This document shows positions 1,170 to 9,948 of a stretch of 10,080 nucleotides of DNA, one piece after another (the stretch's first letter is position 1; every line of letters starts with the position of its first letter). The translations under genes were made by a program, and so were the position numbers. The notes beneath the pieces were generated by a model that was not told the DNA's origin, did no database searches, and worked only from the letters and a program-made list of their open reading frames with translations. This DNA comes from a virus, in UHGV virus genome UHGV-1553573; one strand, given 5' to 3'.

Positions 1170-1260
1170 GATTTACCCTTGAGGTAATTAAAAACCACAT
1201 AAGACACGAAATCAATAGATTTTAGAATATTTATTACCCAACAGGTAATTATCAAGACGT
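1170..1260 (-). promoter_or_regulatory. Candidate promoter/operator region for the 825..1169 gene, with two TTACC-N5-GGTAA palindromes
   Basis: Perfect palindromes at 1173-1187 (TTACC CTTGA GGTAA) and 1234-1248 (TTACC CAACA GGTAA); on the minus strand TTGATA (plus 1250-1255) precedes a 17-nt spacer that is the 1234-1248 palindrome. The -10 hexamer is ambiguous. Confidence 0.4.
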
Positions 1261-1280
1261 AAAAAAATGCGCTATCGCGC
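1261..1280 (-). terminator. Weak candidate intrinsic terminator after the P-like gene
   Basis: On the minus strand a 4-bp GC stem (GCGC, loop GATA, GCGC) is followed by ATTTTTTT, just downstream of the stop at 1286-1288. The stem is short. Confidence 0.3.
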
Positions 1281-1285
1281 TGGTA

Positions 1286-2068
1286 TTACTTGATAAATCC
1301 TGCCGCCTTTCCCCGCCTGTATTCCTCCATCAGCCACTGCGCCGGTGTTATTCCCCCAAGGGTGGCGGCGTTAGGCATGCACCCGAAACTTCGCCCTGGT
1401 GGATGGTAAACGTCTCTCCCTGTGTCCGGAGGTGTACTCATGGGCTCTCGCTTTGCCTGTATGCCGATCACCGGATCGGGTATCTGCTGTCCGGAAGCTA
1501 CCTTTTTCGCCCAATCATCGAGCAGCCTGCGCGCGTGTTTCTCAACCTCAATCTCGCTAAGCTGGCGCTGATACATTGCACGGCGGGTATCACATACGAC
1601 CCAGTACATAACCGGATGTCGCCACGGGAATCTTTCGGGACCACCAGGATATAAACTTTTTTCCTTGCTGTACCGGTGAAACTCCGCCATCACATCGTCA
1701 ATGGTGACGCCAAGAACCATCTTGCTGTCTTTGCACCACTTGATGAATTGCCCTGGCGACGGCCAGAACGGAGATTCACTGGCGCGGGCGTGGCGCATAC
1801 CAGCGTTAACCTGTTCCATTGTTGTGATCCCATTCTCCAGAAACGCAAGCATCCATTGTTTTCGAAATTCGTTTAGCTTTCCTTGCTCGCTGATAGCAGC
1901 GATGCTGCCTGGAAATGCAGCCTGTAACTGGACAAACATTTCGTTGAAAATTCTTGCAACCTGCTCCTTCTTTGCCCTTTCATCGTCAGCAGAAGCAACC
2001 GCCGTCGAGTGGTCATGCCCACCACGAAAGCGATCGTACTCATTAAGAAGTTCTGGAGTTGATTTCAT
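1286..2068 (-). CDS. Lambda P-like replication protein (DnaB helicase loader family)
   Basis: Translation contains WMLAFLENGITTMEQVNAGMR and FWPSPGQFIKWC, which I recall as closely matching lambda P; it sits immediately downstream of and overlapping the O-like gene. Start moved from the track's 2080 to the ATG at 2066-2068 (MKSTPELL), which has GAGGTG 5-8 nt upstream. Confidence 0.8.
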   Translation of the reverse strand: MKSTPELLNEYDRFRGGHDHSTAVASADDERAKKEQVARIFNEMFVQLQAAFPGSIAAISEQGKLNEFRKQWMLAFLENGITTMEQVNAGMRHARASESPFWPSPGQFIKWCKDSKMVLGVTIDDVMAEFHRYSKEKSLYPGGPERFPWRHPVMYWVVCDTRRAMYQRQLSEIEVEKHARRLLDDWAKKVASGQQIPDPVIGIQAKREPMSTPPDTGRDVYHPPGRSFGCMPNAATLGGITPAQWLMEEYRRGKAAGFIK

Positions 2069-2894
2069 CCCACACCTCATCTATCCAGTCAGTGTTATGC
2101 CAGTCAAGGCTCTTTCTGACTTCACCTGATTTCTGTCTACAGAACTGGATGCGCCTTGCCAGCTTCTGCTCCCACTGTGCCTGATGGTATGCCTTACCCT
2201 CAGCCATCCAGTAAATTCTGAACTCTGCAAGTTCCTGTGCCGTTGGCAGACTGTCCAGGTAGATTCCCTGCAATGAGCTTTTCCGAAGAAAGTCATCTGA
2301 TGGCTGCCATTGTTCATGCATGACAAATTTGCCTAATTGCCCTGGCCCACCAGGAGGAACAAAGTTATTCATCACGGCGTTGTTTGCGCCGGGGTCATGA
2401 GGCACAGAATCCCCGGTTTTTGTCCTGCTCTCCCTCTCTTGGTTAAATGACTGGTTATATGACTGGTTCTGGATCCCGTTTTTGGGATCATTCAACATCC
2501 CGTTTTTGGGATCATTCAACATCCCGTTTTTGGGTATATTCCCGTTTTCGGGAACATTACCGTTTTCGGGAACATTACCGTTTTCGGGTTCATTACACCC
2601 TTCTAGGTCGCCTTTAATGTTCCCGTTTTTGGTTATATTAAGAGAGAAAACCCGCACTCTTTTTGTCGCTCCCTTTCTCTCTCCGGTATCTGAAATAAGC
2701 CCCATTTTCATGAGCGATATAAGTCCGGCCTGCACGGTTTTTTTATTCAGGCAAGTGTCTTTAACGAGGCGTTCTATGCTGGGGTAGCAGAGGTTATATT
2801 CATCGGCTCTGTCAGCCATCGAGAGCAGTATGAGCTTTAATGATGAGCTACCTGGATCTGTCTCCCAGGCCCAATCTGTTGCATGTCTGCTCAT
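2043..2894 (-). CDS. Lambda O-like replication initiator (iteron-binding origin protein)
   Basis: 283-aa ORF with GGAG 9 nt upstream of the ATG at 2892-2894; its central part is encoded by the iteron array and gives the peptide repeats NGNVPENGNVPENGNIPKNGMLNDPKNGMLNDPKNG; followed by the P-like gene with a 26-nt overlap, as in lambdoid O-P pairs. Confidence 0.8.
   Translation of the reverse strand: MSRHATDWAWETDPGSSSLKLILLSMADRADEYNLCYPSIERLVKDTCLNKKTVQAGLISLMKMGLISDTGERKGATKRVRVFSLNITKNGNIKGDLEGCNEPENGNVPENGNVPENGNIPKNGMLNDPKNGMLNDPKNGIQNQSYNQSFNQERESRTKTGDSVPHDPGANNAVMNNFVPPGGPGQLGKFVMHEQWQPSDDFLRKSSLQGIYLDSLPTAQELAEFRIYWMAEGKAYHQAQWEQKLARRIQFCRQKSGEVRKSLDWHNTDWIDEVWDEINSRTS
2472..2640. 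repeat. Replication origin iterons inside the O-like gene
   Basis: About seven direct repeats with core CCCGTTTT(T)GGG: three at 24-bp spacing (2472, 2497, 2521) with palindromic arms GATCCC/GGGATC, three at 18-19-bp spacing (2541, 2560, 2578) with arms TTCCCG/CGGGAA, and one more at 2621-2640. On the O-coding strand they read TCCCAAAAACGGGA, resembling the lambda ori iteron as I recall it. A flanking ATGACTGGTT direct repeat lies at 2447-2456 and 2459-2468. Confidence 0.75.
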
Positions 2895-2909
2895 GATTAA
2901 TCTCCGCTA

Positions 2910-3110
2910 TCAGCTTGAGTGTTGTGGGGAGGAATTAATCATGATCTGCTTAATCTCTGCCCTGATGCGACGGTTTGATTCCATGGTGCACTCAACACAG
3001 TGTCCGTTGTAAACCCAGCGTTCACTGTCATGTCCATGCTTACATGGTTTTCCGGTGTAGTAGCGTTTAAGTCCGCGCTTTGCGGCATCAATACGTGTAA
3101 TGATTTCCAT
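2910..3110 (-). CDS. Small putative zinc-binding protein (about 66 aa)
   Basis: Translation MEIITRIDAAKRGLKRYYTGKPCKHGHDSERWVYNGHCVEC has a C-x-H-G-H ... H-C-x-x-C cluster; AGGG about 7 nt upstream of the ATG at 3108-3110; stop 12 nt before the O-like start. The track's longer start (3173) would leave no room for a promoter after the upstream terminator, so the internal start is preferred. Confidence 0.45.
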   Translation of the reverse strand: MEIITRIDAAKRGLKRYYTGKPCKHGHDSERWVYNGHCVECTMESNRRIRAEIKQIMINSSPQHSS

Positions 3111-3206
3111 GGTAAGCCCTGTTATTAGTATTGGGGTTACGGTCATTTTGTGCTGACACAAAAAAAAGATCAACCAGATTTGGTTTTTTATTACCTTTGA
3201 GGTACG

Positions 3207-3238
3207 AATAGATATGAAAAGACCGCCGGGTGGCGGTC
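3207..3238 (-). terminator. Intrinsic terminator downstream of the Cro-like gene
   Basis: 7-bp GC-rich stem GACCGCC / GGCGGTC (3221-3238, loop 3228-3231) followed on the minus strand by TTTTCATATCTATT; lies 23 nt past the stop at 3261-3263. Confidence 0.55.
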
Positions 3239-3260
3239 TACAGAGGGTTGTAGCTGGATA

Positions 3261-3491
3261 TCATGAGTAGAAGAAGTATGCCAGTTCTGCTTTTGAGCGC
3301 AGCCATTGTCTTGTTTTACAGGCTTTAAAAAGCCCATTCATCAATACCTTACCTGGCATTTTGCGCTTACCTGTTAAGTGAGTCTGGATATAGTGACTCG
3401 TCGTTCCGGCTTCCTGTGCGAAGGCTTCACGCTCATCCGGAGTAAGTGCAAGCCAGTGCTTTTTGAAATCGAAATGTCCGTTATCGCTCAT
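3261..3491 (-). CDS. Cro/YdaS-like small HTH DNA-binding protein (76 aa)
   Basis: ORF track entry; the segment FAQEAGTTSHYIQTHLTGKRKMP resembles the Cro/YdaS-type helix-turn-helix; transcribed divergently from the repressor-like gene and upstream of the O/P genes, i.e. the cro position. Confidence 0.6.
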   Translation of the reverse strand: MSDNGHFDFKKHWLALTPDEREAFAQEAGTTSHYIQTHLTGKRKMPGKVLMNGLFKACKTRQWLRSKAELAYFFYS

Positions 3492-3645
3492 AGCTATTGC
3501 CTGATATTTATTTCAGATAATAAATATTCACCCATAAGGTAACAAAAATCAAGGATAGTTACCTATGGGGTGCATTTACCTGTTGGGTAATATTGCTTTA
3601 AATTGAATCATCTACTGATTCATATATGAGGCGATTTTCCAGAAA
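3492..3645. promoter_or_regulatory. Divergent promoter/operator region between the Cro-like and repressor-like genes (OR-like)
   Basis: Three clustered palindromes of the TTACC-N5-GGTAA family at 3528-3542 (TCACC CATAA GGTAA), 3559-3573 (TTACC TATGG GGTGC, degenerate) and 3576-3590 (TTACC TGTTG GGTAA, perfect); a perfect 9-bp AT-rich inverted repeat at 3504-3512/3519-3527; AT-rich hexamers usable as -10/-35 on both strands. Confidence 0.6.
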
Positions 3646-4230
3646 ATGAAAAGTATCCAGGACGTCCGCAGGCAAAATCTCAACGACTTGATCGACCGTG
3701 AATTCAATGGTGTTCAGACGCGGATGGCAGAAAAACTTGGAACTCAGGCAAATCTGGTAAACCGCTGGGCTCTTGGCAAGAAGGTTATCGGCGACCAGGT
3801 TGCACGAAAAATTGAAGCTGCCGCCAATAAACCCCGTAACTGGCTTGATATCGATCGCTCGCTTTCTCAGGAAGGTTTTCAGCCTGTCGGCCCAAGCGAC
3901 ATTGGTCAGCTGGCGGCTCACAACCTGGAACGCTGGATGAGCGAAAGCCGCGACCTTTCAACGCAGGGAAAACTTCACCGCGCATCCGGCGTCGCCCAGG
4001 TGACAATCAGTCGCCTGTTAAACAATGAGGTCAGCGTTTCCATTTCCACCCTGGAGAATGTTGCATCCGCATTCGGGCGTCACGGCTATGAATTACTGAT
4101 TCACCCGCACGACCCTGCGACCATCAACTATGACCGCTCGCGCTACGCATTGTTACCCGAAACCGAGAAAGCAAAGATCGAAAGTTACATTGAATTTGTC
4201 ATCAACCAGAACGAAAAAAACAAACAATAA
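3646..4230 (+). CDS. Tandem helix-turn-helix (XRE-type) repressor-like protein, 194 aa, with no peptidase domain
   Basis: Two HTH-like segments: QTRMAEKLGTQANLVNRWALGKK near the N-terminus and ASGVAQVTISRLLNNEVSVSISTLENVASAFG in the second half. No S24-peptidase-like C-terminal domain is apparent. Sits in the cI position; weak or absent Shine-Dalgarno before the ATG at 3646. Confidence 0.7.
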   Translation: MKSIQDVRRQNLNDLIDREFNGVQTRMAEKLGTQANLVNRWALGKKVIGDQVARKIEAAANKPRNWLDIDRSLSQEGFQPVGPSDIGQLAAHNLERWMSESRDLSTQGKLHRASGVAQVTISRLLNNEVSVSISTLENVASAFGRHGYELLIHPHDPATINYDRSRYALLPETEKAKIESYIEFVINQNEKNKQ

Positions 4231-4250
4231 AATCATACTTTTCAGTAAGT

Positions 4251-4277
4251 AAGCCGCCTTCTGGCGGCTTTTTTATT
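4251..4277 (+). terminator. Rho-independent terminator after the repressor-like gene
   Basis: 8-bp stem AAGCCGCC / GGCGGCTT (4251-4258 and 4263-4270, loop TTCT) followed by TTTTATT; 21 nt after the stop codon. Confidence 0.7.
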
Positions 4278-4287
4278 GCCTATACTA

Positions 4288-4364
4288 TTACCTAATGGGT
4301 AATTTTTTTAACTCATATCTATTGACATCAAACCAAATACGCATAATTATTACCTCAACGGTAA
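4288..4364 (+). promoter_or_regulatory. Strong rightward promoter with two flanking operator palindromes (OL/PL-like)
   Basis: Perfect -35 TTGACA at 4322-4327, 15-16 nt spacer, then ATAATT/TAATTA at 4343-4349; perfect palindromes at 4288-4302 (TTACC TAATG GGTAA) upstream and 4350-4364 (TTACC TCAAC GGTAA) over the predicted start site. Confidence 0.6.
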
Positions 4365-4383
4365 CAGACCGAGGTAACAAGTT

Positions 4384-4536
4384 ATGCAGTGGAAAATCAT
4401 CAACGGTTGGTACTGCGTTACTGCATGCGGATTCATGAGCTGGAAGTTCCGCACCTTACAGGAAGGCATTAAGTGGGCTTTCGTCAGCAAAGAAGCTCGC
4501 GATGTAGCCAACGATAACGAGATATGGGAGGGCTGA
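4384..4536 (+). CDS. Small hypothetical protein, 50 aa
   Basis: ATG at 4384 with GAGG 9 nt upstream, first ORF after the promoter; stop TGA at 4534-4536 lies 2 nt before the next start. Below the ORF-track size cutoff. Translation MQWKIINGWYCVTACGFMSWKFRTLQEGIKWAFVSKEARDVANDNEIWEG. Confidence 0.3.
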   Translation: MQWKIINGWYCVTACGFMSWKFRTLQEGIKWAFVSKEARDVANDNEIWEG

Positions 4537-4538
4537 TA

Positions 4539-4838
4539 ATGAACGTTAATCAGCAGAAAAATCTTCAAAAAATCATGCTGGCATTCGACAAGGACTACCG
4601 CCTGTCAGAACAGCTATATGACCGACAAGTTGAACTGATCGAGAGCATCCGGCTTCATCAACTGGCCTCAACTTTTGACGCTGTAACAGGCAAAGGAGTT
4701 CGCCAGGAAGTGCTGGAGGCAGCTAAAGACAGCCCTGAGTTCGAAGAACTAATGGATGCCTGCCGGCGCGAGGCAATGGCAATTATCGCCCGCTGGGATC
4801 TGGCTGATCAGCTTGATGGGCAGAGGGACGCGGCATGA
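4539..4838 (+). CDS. Hypothetical protein, 99 aa, translationally coupled to the exonuclease gene
   Basis: ATG at 4539 preceded by GGGAGGG at a 6-nt spacing (preferred over the track start at 4524); its stop overlaps the exonuclease start as ATGA (4835-4838). Confidence 0.55.
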   Translation: MNVNQQKNLQKIMLAFDKDYRLSEQLYDRQVELIESIRLHQLASTFDAVTGKGVRQEVLEAAKDSPEFEELMDACRREAMAIIARWDLADQLDGQRDAA

Positions 4839-5656
4839 AACCGGGAATTTATTTCGACATCAGCAACGAAGACTACCACGCCGGTGACGGCGTGAGTAAG
4901 TCGCAACTGGACATGGTTGCCAAGAATCCAGCGCTTCTTAAATGGGTTCAGGCAGCACCAGAAGACGAAGAGAAAAAGTCTGCACTGGATATGGGAACCG
5001 CATTGCACTGTCTGCTTCTGGAGCCTGGAGAGTTCGACAAACGCTTCATTGTTTCACCGAAATTCGATCGTCGGACGAAACAAGGTAAAGCTGACGAAGA
5101 GGCATTTCTTCGTGATGTAGCGGATATGGGGATTACGGTACTTGATGCCGAGCAGTGGCGGAAACTGGAGCTGATGCGTGATAGCGCAATGGCTCACCCG
5201 GCGGCACGCTGGATGCTGGAAGCACCTGGTTACTGCGAAGCATCAATGTACTGGAACGATGAAGAGACGGGTGAGTTGTGCCGAATTCGTCCAGACAAAT
5301 GGCTGAACGAGCACAACGTGATCGTCGACGTGAAAAAGGTTGCAGATATGGACCGTTTTGCACGTCACATCGAGGAATTCCGCTACCACGTGCAGGACGC
5401 AATGTACCGCGAAGGCGCAATGAGGGTTACTGGTCAGCCGCATGGTTTTTTCTTTCTTGCCGTGAGCGAAAGCATTGATTGTGGTCGGTATCCGGTACGC
5501 GTGTTCGGGCTGGATGCGCCGGATGTCGATGCCGGGCACGCTCTGTTCCGCCGGGATCTGAATACCTATCACGAATGCCGCATCAGCGATGAATGGGGCG
5601 GCGTGGAAATTATTAAACGCCCTGAGTGGGCACGCAAACAGGATATGTACGTATGA
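4835..5656 (+). CDS. RecE-like / RecB-family PD-(D/E)XK exonuclease (phage recombination exonuclease), 273 aa
   Basis: Motifs IRPDKW, then VIVDVKK, then QDAMY (Q-x-x-x-Y), matching the D...D-x-K plus QxxxY signature of RecB-family nucleases; immediately upstream of and overlapping the annealing-protein gene. Confidence 0.75.
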   Translation: MKPGIYFDISNEDYHAGDGVSKSQLDMVAKNPALLKWVQAAPEDEEKKSALDMGTALHCLLLEPGEFDKRFIVSPKFDRRTKQGKADEEAFLRDVADMGITVLDAEQWRKLELMRDSAMAHPAARWMLEAPGYCEASMYWNDEETGELCRIRPDKWLNEHNVIVDVKKVADMDRFARHIEEFRYHVQDAMYREGAMRVTGQPHGFFFLAVSESIDCGRYPVRVFGLDAPDVDAGHALFRRDLNTYHECRISDEWGGVEIIKRPEWARKQDMYV

Positions 5657-6570
5657 GCAACGAAATTGCAATCACCAATGATGTGTTGGCTATTCGGGGA
5701 ATCGATGAAGTTACATGGAGCGCTCTGAAAAACAGTATTTACCCTGGGGCAAAAGATGAATCGGTAATGATGGCAGTCGATTACTGCCGGGCGCGTCAAC
5801 TCGATCCTCTTCTTAAGCCGGTACACCTGGTACCAATGAGTGTTAAAGACTCGAAGAGTGGAAAGAATGAATGGCGCGACGTGGTCATGCCTGGCATTGG
5901 ACTTTATCGCATTCAGGCCTACCGTTCCGGCGATTACGCAGGCGCTAATGAACCTGAGTTCGGTCCAGATGTAACACAAACGCTTTCAGGCGTGGAGGTT
6001 ACCTTCCCTCAGTGGTGTAAGTACACCGTCAGCAAGCGAATGGCAAGCGGGGAAATCGTAGAGTTTAGCGCCAAAGAATACTGGATTGAGAACTATGCAA
6101 CTGGGGGGCGTGACACATCGGCACCAAATGCCATGTGGAAAAAGCGCCCTTATGCGCAGTTGGCAAAATGCGCAGAGGCACAGGCATTACGTAAAGCATG
6201 GCCGGAGATTGGTCAACAAGCCACAGCTGAGGAAATGGAAGGTAAATATATCGACTCACCTGACATTATTGAACGTGACGTAACTCCAAGAAGTCAGGCA
6301 AAGCACGGCACAGCATCCAGCATGAACAGTCTGATCAACGCTAAACCAGTGAAAAAGCATGATGAGCAAACGCGTAAAGCGGATAGCCGTGATCCAGAAG
6401 AAATGCTGATGGCCTTTACCAGCGCAGCGATGAATTACAGCACTGTCTCCGAACTGGATAAGGCTTACAAATACATTGCACAAAAACTTTCAGATGATGA
6501 CGAACTGCTGGCAAAAGCCACCGACGTTTACAGCGTTCGTCGGGAAGAATTAAACGAAACATCTATGTAA
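5653..6570 (+). CDS. Bet/RecT-family single-strand annealing protein, about 305 aa
   Basis: The segments AVDYCRARQLDPLLKPVHLVPM and PNAMWKKRPYAQLAKCAEAQALRKAWPE parallel conserved regions of lambda Bet as I recall them. Start placed at the ATG at 5653, which overlaps the exonuclease stop (ATGA) and has AGGA upstream; the track's GTG at 5626 is less likely. Confidence 0.75.
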   Translation: MSNEIAITNDVLAIRGIDEVTWSALKNSIYPGAKDESVMMAVDYCRARQLDPLLKPVHLVPMSVKDSKSGKNEWRDVVMPGIGLYRIQAYRSGDYAGANEPEFGPDVTQTLSGVEVTFPQWCKYTVSKRMASGEIVEFSAKEYWIENYATGGRDTSAPNAMWKKRPYAQLAKCAEAQALRKAWPEIGQQATAEEMEGKYIDSPDIIERDVTPRSQAKHGTASSMNSLINAKPVKKHDEQTRKADSRDPEEMLMAFTSAAMNYSTVSELDKAYKYIAQKLSDDDELLAKATDVYSVRREELNETSM

Positions 6571-6578
6571 CCACCACC

Positions 6579-6597
6579 GCGGCGCCACGTGCGCCGC
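6579..6597 (+). other. GC-rich hairpin with no U-tract, between the annealing-protein gene and the AlpA-like gene
   Basis: GCGGCGC (6579-6585), loop CACGT, GCGCCGC (6591-6597): a perfect 7-bp stem 9 nt after the stop; no T-run follows. Confidence 0.4.
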
Positions 6598-6619
6598 ACT
6601 GCAACCAAGAGAGGTATTC

Positions 6620-6868
6620 ATGAAAGGTGCATTAGGTAAGAAAGAACTCCTGGCGGTGGTGCCACTGTCATGGAGCACTATCGACCGTATGGAGCGCGCA
6701 GGGGAATTTCCTAAACGCTGGTATATCACCGATAAACGCTGCGCATGGAACCGTGATGAAGTTGAGCGTTGGCTTGATGAACGTCAGGCAGCAAGCCCGG
6801 CAGAGTTCCAGGGTAAAAAGCCTCCTGTTCAGCAACGTGTATATCGTCCCGTGAGCAACGCTGCATGA
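6620..6868 (+). CDS. AlpA-family phage transcriptional regulator / excisionase-like DNA-binding protein, 82 aa
   Basis: LLAVVPLSWSTIDRMERAGEFPKRWYITDKRCAWNRDEVERWLDE fits the AlpA/Xis-type pattern (S-x-S-T-I, FPK, W...EV..WL); AGAGAGG 5 nt upstream of the ATG. Confidence 0.7.
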   Translation: MKGALGKKELLAVVPLSWSTIDRMERAGEFPKRWYITDKRCAWNRDEVERWLDERQAASPAEFQGKKPPVQQRVYRPVSNAA

Positions 6869-6977
6869 GTGCGCTGCTAAGGCACTGGAGCAAATGGTCA
6901 GGATGGTACTTATTCCTGGCCTCTGTTTCAGCATGGCTTTATCTGCTGGCATTAATTTTCAGAGAGGGTTGGATTAA

Positions 6978-7277
6978 GTGAGAAAGTTAAGCCGACTTGA
7001 AAAATATCACATGAATAAGGTTTCAATGCGCAGTCCGTCAAAGATTGTCGCCGTTACTCCTGCGGCGATAGAGATCGAAAAACGCGCGATTGAAAGAGAG
7101 AAAAAAGGGCAATTCCGCATTGCCGCTCACCTTTGGCTTCAGTGTATGGATGTTGCTTCTGGTGATGTTGAACGTGCAAGGATCGCGGTTCGCAGGGACC
7201 AATGTATCACAAAAGGTAACGGCCTTCGCCGTGGCGACTATAGCGGCATAGGATGTTGTGGGGTGGTTTATGACTAA
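6978..7277 (+). CDS. Hypothetical protein, start uncertain (GTG 6978, ATG 7011 or ATG 7026)
   Basis: ORF track entry; GAGAGGG about 9 nt upstream of the GTG; its last codons overlap the methyltransferase ATG by 8 nt. Confidence 0.45.
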   Translation: MRKLSRLEKYHMNKVSMRSPSKIVAVTPAAIEIEKRAIEREKKGQFRIAAHLWLQCMDVASGDVERARIAVRRDQCITKGNGLRRGDYSGIGCCGVVYD

Positions 7278-7920
7278 GAAATACACACTAATCTATGCAG
7301 ATCCACCCTGGGTATACCGGGACAAAGCCGCAGATGGTAATCGCGGTGCCGGTTTTAAATATCCGGTTATGAGTGTGCTGGATATCTGCCGCCTTCCTGT
7401 GTGGGATTTGGCCGATGAAAACTGTCTGTTGGCCATGTGGTGGGTGCCAACACAACCACTCGAAGCACTAAAAGTTGTTGAAGCCTGGGGATTCCGTCTG
7501 ATGACGATGAAGGGCTTCACGTGGATAAAATGTGGTAGTCGACAACCAGATAAACTGGTTATGGGTATGGGACACATGACTCGCGCCAATAGTGAAGATT
7601 GCCTGTTTGCGGTAAAGGGAAAACTACCTACGCGCATTAATGCAGGGATCGTTCAGTCATTTACCGCACCGCGGCTTGAGCATTCAAGAAAGCCAGATAT
7701 CGTTCGTGAAAAACTTGTGCAATTATTAGGCGATGTTTCTCGCATTGAACTGTTCGCCCGCCAGACGTCTCATGGCTTCGATGTTTGGGGTAATCAGTGC
7801 GAAGACCCGGCAGTGCAACTACACCCTGGATACGCGTTGGATATCGGCGGATTAACAAATGCATTCAGCAATGCTCCGCTGTCACCAACAGACAACCAGG
7901 GGCGGGAGCGTGCAGCATGA
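7270..7920 (+). CDS. MT-A70-family N6-adenine DNA methyltransferase with no restriction partner in the window
   Basis: N-terminal [10 protein letters not shown] (DPPW catalytic motif) and later EHSRKP, both typical of this family. Start placed at the ATG at 7270 ([14 protein letters not shown]) rather than the track's GTG at 7258; stop overlaps the phosphatase start. Confidence 0.75.
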
Positions 7921-8576
7921 ACCTATATCAACGCATCAATGGCGCTGACTGGTGCAATATCTTCGTCGTCGGCGATCTGCATGGGTGCTACACGCTGCTG
8001 ATGAACGAACTCGACAAAGTTTCATTCGACCCGGCGCGCGATTTGCTTATTTCCGTTGGTGACCTTGTTGACCGCGGCGCTGAAAACGTCGAATGCCTGG
8101 ATTTGATTACTATGCCGTGGTTCCGAGCTGTTCGTGGCAACCATGAGCAGATGATGCTGGATGCACTGGTCAACGGCGGAAGTTTCGGACATTGGATGTC
8201 AAACGGCGGTGGATGGTGGCACCAACTTGATTCTGAGCAGGATGTGCAACTCAAATACCTTCTGCCAAAGGTTACCAACCTCCCGATGATTATCGAACTG
8301 GTTACCGGCAATAAGAAGGTCGTCATCTGCCACGCAGACTACCCGCACAACGAATACGCATTCGATAAGCCAGTACCGGAAGAAATGGTGATATGGAATC
8401 GTGAGCGGGTTAGCGACGCGCAGGACGGTATTGTCTCGGAGATAACCGGTGCCGATTTGTTCATCTTCGGTCATACGCCAGCACATCACCCACTGGTGTA
8501 TGCAAACCAAATGTACATCGACACCGGCGCAGTGTTCTGCGGAAATCTGACGCTTACCAAAGTCCAGGAAGGATAG
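7917..8576 (+). CDS. Lambda-type Ser/Thr protein phosphatase (PPP-family metallophosphatase), 219 aa
   Basis: GDLHG, GDLVDRG and GNHE motifs plus the extended run [17 protein letters not shown]...[14 protein letters not shown]...VICHADYP...FIFGHTP...[16 protein letters not shown], which matches lambda phosphatase as I recall it. Start at the ATG at 7917, overlapping the methyltransferase stop (ATGA). Confidence 0.85.
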
Positions 8577-8578
8577 AA

Positions 8579-9835
8579 TTATTTATTACTGTCTTCCATC
8601 CACTTCTCAAACTTCGACGGGGAGAACGGAATCAGATCCGTATGCTCCCCGTTAATCCAGGAATCAATCATATCGGCCCACTGCTGCAACATGTAGGCGC
8701 GCTGTCTGGCGTATTCCGCTTTGTTATATACGGCGCGCACACCTTTCTGCTCGTGTGCCAGAGCCTTTTCAATCCAGTCTGAAGGATAACCAGCCTCATG
8801 CAACAATGTACTGGCTGTACGGCGCATATCATGTACAGTAAAATCCTGAATATGCTCACCATCTTCATTTATTATTTTCACCGTTCTGTCGATCAGAGAG
8901 TTCAGCGCGGCATTAGATAATGGCTTCCGGAAATTGTAACGACCAGGAACCAGATATTCACTTCCACCAGCGCACATCTGCAACCCGACTAATATATCCT
9001 GTGCCTGTTTAGGCAGGTAAATAACGTGCGCCCGACTTCCCTTCATGCGGTCTGAAGGAATTGTCCATGTCCATTTTTTAAAATCTATTTCATCCCACGT
9101 TGCATTGGTGAATTCTCCCTTACGAACCATGGTGATAAGCACCAGCTTTAAAGCCATTTTCATAGTGCCCATAGCACCAATGGCATCCAGCGTGCGGAAG
9201 AACAGGCCAATTTCTTCTGGTGTCAGTGTTCGCTCTCGTGGTTTAAATATGGCGATAGACGAAGGTTTAATGTCAGCCGCAGGATTAAACAAACCATGAC
9301 CACGGTCATTGGCGTGACGGTATACGCTGCTGATGATCTCCCTGGCCTGTACTGCTGTTGCCCGACCACCGCGTTCGACAATCCGGTCACACAAATCACG
9401 AACCATTGATGTGGTAATTTCAGCCATCATTTTGTTGCCAAGAACCGGAAGTATGTCACGGTCGATCACCGCCTGCTTCATTGCGCGGGTACTGTCAGCC
9501 AGGATGACGTGTTTCATATAACTGTCGGTATGTACCGCAAACGTCTCGGCACCACGAATCTTTTTAATACCGTCACGTTTAGCCGCAGCCGGTGACTGGC
9601 CTGCTTTAAGCAGCTTCTTTGCAGCAATCAGTTCTTCTCGCGCTTCTGCCAGGCTGATACCGTCACGCCCATACTGCCCGATTACCAGTGTTTCGCGGCG
9701 ACCGTTGATACGGTAGTCATAGCGAAACGAGACCGTGCCTGACGTAAGCACAGCTACATACAGCCCGTCACGATCGGAGACCTTGTACAGTTTGTCCTGC
9801 GGCTTGAGGTTTTTTAATTTTGTATCGGTAAGCAC
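8579..9835 (-). CDS. int: P4-type tyrosine integrase, 418 aa
   Basis: N-terminus LTDTKLKNLKPQDKLYKVSDRDGLYVAV is typical of P4-like integrase arm domains; C-terminal HDMRRT ... ALAHEQKGVRAVYNKAEY fits the H-x-x-R ... Y catalytic region. GTG start at 9833-9835 with GGGTGA upstream; convergent with the phosphatase gene, 2 bp apart. Confidence 0.85.
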   Translation of the reverse strand: MLTDTKLKNLKPQDKLYKVSDRDGLYVAVLTSGTVSFRYDYRINGRRETLVIGQYGRDGISLAEAREELIAAKKLLKAGQSPAAAKRDGIKKIRGAETFAVHTDSYMKHVILADSTRAMKQAVIDRDILPVLGNKMMAEITTSMVRDLCDRIVERGGRATAVQAREIISSVYRHANDRGHGLFNPAADIKPSSIAIFKPRERTLTPEEIGLFFRTLDAIGAMGTMKMALKLVLITMVRKGEFTNATWDEIDFKKWTWTIPSDRMKGSRAHVIYLPKQAQDILVGLQMCAGGSEYLVPGRYNFRKPLSNAALNSLIDRTVKIINEDGEHIQDFTVHDMRRTASTLLHEAGYPSDWIEKALAHEQKGVRAVYNKAEYARQRAYMLQQWADMIDSWINGEHTDLIPFSPSKFEKWMEDSNK

Positions 9836-9948
9836 AATTCACCCGTATAGAAACCATTTTCATGACGGTATGAGAGTATACCTTTAAGGTAATACCGTCA
9901 CCTGTACCGACGAAAAATATGGTGTAGAGTGAATAGAAATGAATACAT
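9836..9948 (-). promoter_or_regulatory. Integrase upstream region: candidate int promoter, operator-like palindrome and nested inverted repeats (possible att-proximal sequence)
   Basis: On the minus strand TATACT (plus 9875-9880) is a near-consensus -10; ATACC TTTAA GGTAA at 9878-9892 is a one-mismatch member of the operator family; a 9-bp inverted repeat TGACGGTAT / ATACCGTCA (9863-9871 and 9892-9900) brackets it. Confidence 0.35.

Follow-up and report, generated by a model that had tools for sequence, protein, structure and literature searches.

In phage lambda, Cro shares its operators with CI. In phages P1 and P7 one repressor, C1, acts on many operators dispersed over the genome (asymmetric 17-bp sites in P1) and is inactivated by an antirepressor, not by RecA-mediated cleavage, while the gp71 stoperators of mycobacteriophage L5 are found genome-wide, are asymmetric and orientation-dependent, and block elongation from within transcribed regions. 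The closest described system is that of epsilon15 gp38 and SPC32H Rep, a characterised repressor family with a solved structure (SPC32H Rep, PDB 5D50). Papers that cite this structure describe SPC32H Rep as having an N-terminal DNA-binding, a middle dimerisation and a C-terminal tetramerisation domain (PMC9986798), its tetramer as binding palindromic sites (bioRxiv 10.1101/2021.09.07.459249; PMC9986798), and each palindrome as being read by two N-terminal domains that come from different dimers of one tetramer (bioRxiv 10.1101/2021.09.07.459249).

The stretch of DNA analysed here (the window, 10,080 nt) comprises the early region of a temperate podophage of the phiV10/epsilon15 type (genus Uetakevirus), which is inserted at guaA in E. 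coli. Its DNA is ~97.7% identical to phiV10, and prophages of this type, carrying at least 80% of the window, are present in 181 of 5,426 complete E. coli genomes. The palindrome TTACC-N5-GGTAA that recurs in it is very probably the operator of the lysogeny repressor Rep, which is of the epsilon15 gp38/SPC32H Rep type. This reading draws on motif statistics, genus-wide conservation, promoter positions and repressor homology, all computed here; repressor function, tetramer binding to palindromes and the antirepressor Ant are taken from the literature and databases, and we infer the two-operator clamp, the autoregulation of rep and the exact transcription starts.

As in epsilon15 and SPC32H, the gene order is cro-like, rep, exo/bet, the motif stands at homologous positions and the repressor is a full-length homologue. 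The motif itself is already known: the epsilon15 RefSeq record NC_004775 carries seven 'protein_bind: repressor, lysogeny' features, which may be predictions rather than footprints, and all seven coincide with motif matches, the window sites having the same half-sites and the same spacing. Records of phiV10-type phages hold no operator annotation, and full-text literature searches, made both with the motif string and on operators of Uetakevirus, returned nothing specific. A consensus like ATTACCWDWWNGGTAAT has reportedly been published by Kropinski et al.; our reading does not rest on it.

Table 1. Candidate operators, likely promoters and regulatory genes in the window.
Feature	Position	Strand	Basis or context
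Proximal operator of DUF1064-gene promoter, perfect	1173..1187	.	centred near +1
DUF1064-gene promoter	-35 TTGATT 1210-1215; -10 TTTAAT 1187-1192	-	
Distal operator of DUF1064-gene promoter, perfect	1234..1248	.	near -61; just downstream of replication-protein-P terminator
Replication-operon promoter, conserved	-35 TTGATC 3168-3173; -10 CAAAAT 3145-3150	-	
Half-degenerate operator (GTACC...GGTAAT on minus strand), one mismatch	3191..3205	.	~60 bp upstream of replication-operon start
Cro-like small protein, 76 aa, homologue of epsilon15 gp39	3261..3491	-	ORF list; divergent from rep
Operator C1, TCACC-N5-GGTAA, one mismatch	3528..3542	.	in spacer/-10 region of leftward cro-like promoter
Operator C2, two mismatches	3559..3573	.	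31 bp from C1, 17 bp from C3
Operator C3, perfect	3576..3590	.	overlaps likely -35/spacer of rightward rep promoter
Rep, lysogeny repressor, 194 aa	3646..4230	+	identity to phiV10 p40; PDB 5D50 homology; Pfam
Distal operator of exo/bet (PL-like) promoter, perfect	4288..4302	.	centred near -62
exo/bet sigma-70 promoter: TTGACA, 17 bp, AATTAT	4322..4350	+	consensus match, conservation
Proximal operator of exo/bet promoter, perfect	4350..4364	.	abuts -10; centred near +1
Operator-like ATACC-N5-GGTAA, one mismatch, ambiguous	9878..9892	.	attP arm upstream of int

The original prediction had listed nine copies of the palindrome, and a scan of the window recovered all of them: five perfect, three with one mismatch and one with two (Table 1). 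Not one of 200 dinucleotide-preserving shuffles of the window contained a perfect copy, against five in the real sequence, and at up to two mismatches 14 matches were observed where 3.08 ± 1.79 were expected. Also as predicted, none of the nine sites falls in a coding region, all of them lying in the non-coding 12% of the window (chance about 0.12^9); the remaining two-mismatch matches, at 3367, 4873, 5739, 5934 and 8290, are inside coding sequence and fit the chance level. Most copies had further been said to extend to ATTACC-N5-GGTAAT, which holds for at least one side but for both sides only at 1234 and 4288. A set of 42 perfect sites gave the consensus (A/T)TTACC, a WWWWW-rich spacer and GGTAA(T), with A or T as the central base in 98%.

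The proposal that the motif is restricted to the phage element was upheld by a near-identical prophage, which holds 11 perfect copies in 40.2 kb, compared with none in 159.7 kb of flanking chromosome. These counts, the shuffles and the confinement of the sites to intergenic promoter regions leave a negligible probability that the motif reflects chance or a general host feature, such as a methylation/restriction motif or a host-factor site, a reading for which the AT-rich intergenic context speaks and nothing further; a host-wide motif is accordingly rejected.

Five Uetakeviruses carry 8-11 perfect sites per ~39-kb genome at homologous positions, and the motif is kept at homologous promoters in phages of E. 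coli, Salmonella, Enterobacter and Klebsiella (alignments A1, A2, A3 and A5; site tables). Across these genera the half-sites and -35 boxes are invariant in the four alignments, and spacers and flanks vary. Such conservation bears on whether the palindromes might act as RNA hairpins, in termination, processing or translational control, and not as protein-binding DNA. They can form hairpins of 5-7 bp, and the 1173-1187 copy overlaps the Shine-Dalgarno sequence of the gene starting at 1169, but it is the half-site sequence and not just the pairing that is invariant, with no compensatory changes, and the distal sites, being upstream of the -35 box, are not transcribed from the promoters they flank. 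Since the predicted folds also have little stability (-3.5 to -5.5 kcal/mol, z -1.3 to -2.2) and no T-runs, we reject a hairpin or terminator role as very improbable.

The operator reading agrees with the promoters that the sites accompany, which we assigned from consensus matches and conservation. The claim that the palindromes stand at promoters of separate early units was supported by conserved -35 boxes and aligned operators, the int-proximal site aside. The exo/bet promoter is the best promoter-like match in the window (10/12), its CTATTGAC segment is invariant in alignment A1, and the 62-bp pairing of its operators is kept in phiV10, epsilon15, SPC32H, Tyrion and BUCT711. At the DUF1064 promoter alignment A2 shows no variation in CTATTGA or in either operator. 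The promoter that a tool detected there, TTGATA (1250-1255)/AATATT, does not recur in phiV10 and the other genomes, and we preferred the conserved CTATTGATT box further downstream. Before the replication operon the GGTAAT half of the site is invariant and the other half varies (GTACC, ACACC, ATACC). The three early promoters are built alike: each has an operator near -61, and two of them have a second at +1; these pairs lie 61-63 bp apart at both loci in every genome compared.

The protein most likely to read these sites is Rep, which is 100% identical to phiV10 p40, ZX5 ORF21 and the PAS61 repressor. Homology to the crystallised Rep of SPC32H spans its full length (E 4e-42, residues 1-190 of 194), the C-terminal region aligning to the tetramerisation/Ant-binding domain; identity to the proteins of epsilon15 and SPC32H is ~42%, rising to 54% in the DNA-binding domain; the NLVNRW helix is invariant across genera despite the 42% overall identity to SPC32H Rep. 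A Pfam search of Rep found HTH families only and no S24 peptidase (autocleavage) domain, and the HTH_3 match falls in the middle, dimerisation domain. The idea that the half-sites 10 bp apart are bound by an HTH protein is supported, whereas the variant in which a single tandem-HTH polypeptide binds the palindrome does not fit the domain roles published for SPC32H Rep and is rejected on those grounds. When the identical repressor of ZX5 was overexpressed, free phage was eliminated and holin and endolysin mRNA fell by 99.97-99.99% (PMC9782041).

Between rep and the divergent cro-like gene lie three of the sites. The cro-like promoter has a conserved -35, TTGATT, at 3547-3552 on the minus strand, which is invariant and which we preferred to the non-conserved TTGTTA at 3540-3545; at C1 alignment A3 shows an unvarying AAAAATCAA block, with a promoter-like match nearby. 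C2, the most degenerate copy, is supported as a site because perfect copies occupy the aligned position in epsilon15 (33358), SPC32H (34407) and BUCT711 (6402/6419). The phiV10 clade differs from epsilon15 in having a degenerate site here, and it also lacks the third rep-exo operator that is present in epsilon15, SPC32H and BUCT711. The overlap of C3 with the likely rep promoter suggests that rep is autoregulated through this site.

The same arrangement raises the possibility that the sites are bound, primarily or additionally, by the Cro-like protein, which would use them to switch rep off and tune early transcription in lytic growth. Throughout the genus this protein is highly conserved, no less than Rep and if anything more so, with an invariant HTH-like stretch (AGTTSHYIQ.HLT), and its gene diverges from rep across the three-operator region. 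A Pfam search of it gave no match, however, the sites are attributed to the repressor in the epsilon15 record, and overexpressed Rep alone silences the lysis genes (PMC9782041). On balance we consider this reading rather unlikely, and the Cro-like protein is unlikely to be the exclusive binder; it may bind the same operators, and shared binding is compatible with the Rep explanation.

With Rep as the repressor, two N-terminal HTH domains of the tetramer would read the half-sites 10 bp apart, and bound Rep would occlude the sigma-70 promoters. At exo/bet and DUF1064 one operator would cover -10/+1 and the second would lie six helical turns upstream (~-61), so placed that one tetramer may clamp both; in the cro-like/rep region the lytic promoter would lie under the three operators, through which rep probably regulates itself. 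Complete genomes have the motif also ahead of the terminase, structural, tail-fibre/antirepressor and lysis units, and a single repressor would therefore silence essentially every transcription unit directly, these included. Direct repression of the early operons, unlike in lambda, had been anticipated in the original prediction and fits both the promoter-sited operators and the identity of the motif with the epsilon15 repressor sites, but the scheme appears wider than was foreseen, reaching the late, lysis and tail units too. No N or Q homologue was seen in the window. A more far-reaching proposal is that promoters bracketed near -61/+1 (61-63 bp, in four host genera) are clamped or looped whole by one Rep tetramer and that this, with the late, lysis and tail operators, amounts to one-tier repression of the whole genome with no transcriptional cascade; we advance it tentatively and hold it to be somewhat doubtful. 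Induction would be expected, as in SPC32H, through a small LexA-controlled antirepressor, Ant, encoded elsewhere in the prophage: a canonical LexA box stands beside the ant homologue in epsilon15 and SPC32H, and likewise in phiV10 and the AREA_486 prophage, both near-identical to the element studied here, ant lying outside the window.

Like lambda CI/Cro, the locus has a repressor gene and a cro-like gene that diverge from a region of three operators, and palindromes that are read by HTH domains in pairs; sites in phase may plausibly be bound cooperatively. It differs in that Rep has no S24 autocleavage domain by Pfam, that operators stand at about a dozen promoters where lambda has two, and that the tetramer, as published for SPC32H Rep, pairs HTH domains from different dimers. 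The likeness to P1/P7 C1, in which one repressor directly controls many separate units, is one of working only, and P1 C1 is not known to be related to Rep in sequence. Repressor sites are numerous and spread genome-wide, as are the L5 stoperators, but here they are symmetric palindromes that flank or overlap -35/-10 elements.

As a discovery the motif matters little, since operators have been annotated and crystal structures and the antirepressor mechanism already described. What is added is the shared early-promoter layout (-61, +1), the ambiguity of the int-proximal site and the misfit of a tandem-HTH reading. The conserved -61/+1 bracket offers a testable geometry for a trans-paired Rep tetramer on DNA, and the conserved half-sites together with the invariant recognition helix predict one shared immunity specificity for Uetakeviruses from four host genera. 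In prophages of this type the motif can serve for annotating promoters and immunity regions, operators being unmarked in the phiV10-type records.

The copy next to int had been counted among the promoter sites; the motif match is there, but its role as a repressor operator is ambiguous. Inverted copies of GTGACGGTAT, a 10-mer annotated as integrase binding sites in epsilon15, bracket it at 9862-9871 and 9892-9901, with three more inside int, and because these arm-type repeats flank it in a region that is generally conserved (88% overall), its status as an operator is uncertain. It may instead be part of the attP arm architecture, a spacer or overlap between inverted integrase arm-type sites and no repressor operator, which we regard as a serious possibility though not the favoured one. 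Against this reading, the site agrees with the motif at 9 of the 10 specified bases, its half-sites have the proper 5-bp separation and its spacer is rich in A/T, it is found 43 bp upstream of where int starts, a sensible place for repressing int in a lysogen, and the arm-site and operator roles could coexist. In its favour, the homologous palindrome in epsilon15 (26882-26896) carries no repressor annotation, the adjacent 26873-26882 being annotated as integrase binding, and the one-mismatch form (GGTAT) is kept in all genomes, GGTAT also ending the arm motif.

The palindrome TTACC-N5-GGTAA occurs where the original prediction had placed it, and a rescan of the whole window together with shuffling showed its coordinates, counts and chance estimate to be correct. 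Perfect copies start at 1173, 1234, 3576, 4288 and 4350, while 0 of 200 dinucleotide-preserving shuffles contained any. Allowing up to two mismatches, 14 matches were observed in the window versus 3.1 expected; these include all four imperfect sites previously named (3191, 3528, 3559 and 9878). All nine cited sites fall within the non-coding 12% of the window, and the remaining five two-mismatch matches, which lie within coding sequence, look like background.

E. coli prophages match the window at 97.5-98.9% identity, at least 80% of it is present in 181 of 5,426 complete E. coli genomes, and a further match is to the early region of phiV10, PAS61, ZX5, TL-2011b and other phages of Uetakevirus, the genus of epsilon15-like temperate podophages. 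At its right end are the attP core and the 3' end of guaA, where ZX5 is reported to integrate. The gene order is Eae-like, DUF1064, replication protein P, DnaT-like initiator and a small zinc-ribbon-like protein; then cro-like (leftward), the repressor, two small ORFs, a PD-(D/E)XK exonuclease and Bet/RecT; and finally AlpA, PerC, an MT-A70 methylase and a phosphatase (rightward), with int leftward. Three neighbouring tandem-repeat arrays within the DnaT-like/O-like initiator gene, encoding the peptide repeats NGNVPE/NGMLNDPK, are likely origin iterons of the kind seen in lambda O.

The lysogeny repressor, Rep (3646-4230), is 100% identical to phiV10 p40 and ZX5 ORF21, and matches PDB 5D50, the Rep of Salmonella phage SPC32H, over its full length (E 4e-42). 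The same structure is named in the repressor note of the epsilon15 RefSeq record, whose seven "protein_bind: repressor, lysogeny" features all coincide with TTACC-N5-GGTAA matches. As outlined in PMC9986798, SPC32H Rep binds DNA through its N-terminal domain, dimerises through the middle one and uses the C-terminal one for tetramerisation and Ant binding, and the palindromes are described as being read by DNA-binding domains of different dimers within the tetramer (PMC9986798; bioRxiv 10.1101/2021.09.07.459249). The alternative of a single tandem-HTH polypeptide, also offered originally, clashes with these domain roles as outlined there; the Pfam HTH_3 match (residues 106-147) lies within the published dimerisation domain. 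Overexpression of the identical ZX5 repressor abolished free phage and lowered holin and endolysin transcripts by 99.97-99.99% (PMC9782041). The original finding is real and was correctly interpreted in outline, but it is not new: epsilon15 already has the motif annotated, and the structure and function of the repressor family have been characterised.

The motif is restricted to the element. A near-identical prophage in AREA_486 has 11 perfect sites in 40.2 kb, versus none in the 159.7 kb of chromosome flanking it, where only six one-mismatch matches occur; the similar host-chromosome density that would have counted against the original prediction was not seen. phiV10, epsilon15, SPC32H, Enterobacter phage Tyrion and Klebsiella phage BUCT711 each carry 8-11 perfect sites at homologous positions. 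Across the aligned homologous intergenic regions the TTACC/GGTAA pentamers and -35 boxes never change, whereas the 5-bp spacers and flanks do. A set of 42 perfect sites shows an A/T bias in the outer flank, and 98% of them have A or T as the central spacer base. Rep of the phiV10 and epsilon15 types is 42% identical overall and 54% in the N-terminal domain, with an invariant NLVNRW stretch. The Cro-like protein is at least as conserved as Rep, whose operators it may share.

From these positions we infer one layout, partly new in its detail, common to the exo/bet, DUF1064 and replication-operon promoters.

Promoter elements, operators and repeats in the window
Feature	Strand	Position	Detail
exo/bet promoter		4322-4327; 4345-4350	-35 TTGACA; -10 AATTAT
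exo/bet proximal operator		4350-4364	about +1
exo/bet distal operator		4288-4302	about -62
DUF1064-gene promoter	minus	1210-1215; 1187-1192	-35 TTGATT; -10 TTTAAT
DUF1064-gene proximal operator		1173-1187	about +1, overlapping Shine-Dalgarno
DUF1064-gene distal operator		1234-1248	about -61
Replication-operon promoter	minus	3168-3173; 3145-3150	-35 TTGATC; -10 CAAAAT
Replication-operon distal operator		3191-3205	half-degenerate, about -60
GTGACGGTAT copy 1	+	9314-9323
GTGACGGTAT copy 2	-	9567-9576
GTGACGGTAT copy 3	-	9657-9666
GTGACGGTAT copy 4	+	9862-9871	one mismatch
GTGACGGTAT copy 5	-	9892-9901
Initiator-gene tandem arrays		2440-2596	12 bp x2.4; 24 bp x2.6 (100% identity); 18 bp x4.1

At both paired loci, in six of six genomes, the operators are 61-63 bp apart, about six helical turns, a spacing that would fit one Rep tetramer engaging both operators of a pair. 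If any aspect adds to existing knowledge, it is this conserved -61/+1 bracket. The replication operon has no complete proximal operator in the window; epsilon15 and SPC32H retain a TTACC half-site there. That the palindromes act instead as RNA hairpins is argued against by the weakness of the predicted hairpins (-3.5 to -5.5 kcal/mol), their lack of T-runs, and the distal operators lying upstream of the promoters that they flank. As for operators between cro-like and rep, those at 3528, 3559 and 3576 are spaced 31 and 17 bp; the first lies within the spacer of a conserved leftward promoter, and the last overlaps the likely -35 of the rep promoter.

A third operator in the rep-exo region, absent from the window, phiV10 and Tyrion in site tables and alignment, sits 76 bp downstream of the proximal operator of the exo promoter, past an extra hairpin-containing insert, in epsilon15 (32479-32493), SPC32H (33528-33542) and BUCT711 (about 7265-7285). 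In Tyrion, annotated ORF gp39 (34059-34271) overlaps the conserved intergenic stretch from rep to exo, with both operators and the promoter (34195-34271), and is probably a spurious gene call.

The ninth site, 9878-9892, is an uncertain operator: two inverted copies of GTGACGGTAT flank it, the epsilon15 record labels identical 10-mers as integrase binding (arm-type) sites, its epsilon15 homologue carries no repressor-site annotation, and overall conservation of the region is 88%. The other three GTGACGGTAT copies lie within the int coding sequence, these two being upstream of int.

Induction via an antirepressor fits the data, since Rep has no S24 domain by Pfam and relatives carry a LexA box by an ant homologue. 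Papers citing the SPC32H structure describe Ant as taking the Rep complex apart. Beyond the window, a canonical LexA box, CTGTATAAACATACAG, adjoins the small ant/gp19 homologue in epsilon15 (19841), SPC32H (19958), phiV10 (20822) and the prophage of strain AREA_486 (15263), in the divergent ant/tail-fibre region, where a Rep operator lies about 40-55 bp away, in agreement with the LexA-controlled antirepressor described for SPC32H. A LexA-like box, CTGATATTTATTTCAG (3501-3516; CTG-N10-CAG, AT-rich), sits after the cro-like promoter and before the start codon of the cro-like gene. It departs from canonical CTGT...ACAG, is kept in phiV10, the AREA_486 prophage and Tyrion, and is absent in epsilon15, SPC32H and BUCT711; through this putative box the cro-like gene may be under direct SOS control in the phiV10 clade.

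In complete genomes the motif also lies upstream of terS (an 18-bp pair), the structural operon and the lysis cassette, and in the tail-fibre/ant divergent region, so direct silencing by Rep appears to extend to essentially every transcription unit. This scheme is closer to the dispersed-operator logic of the P1 C1 repressor than to that of lambda. The phiV10 terS pair (87-101 and 105-119) falls inside the annotated CDS (41-715), whereas the homologous epsilon15 pair (12-26, 30-44) is upstream of a shorter terS (47-643); the phiV10-type annotation probably places the terS start too far upstream.
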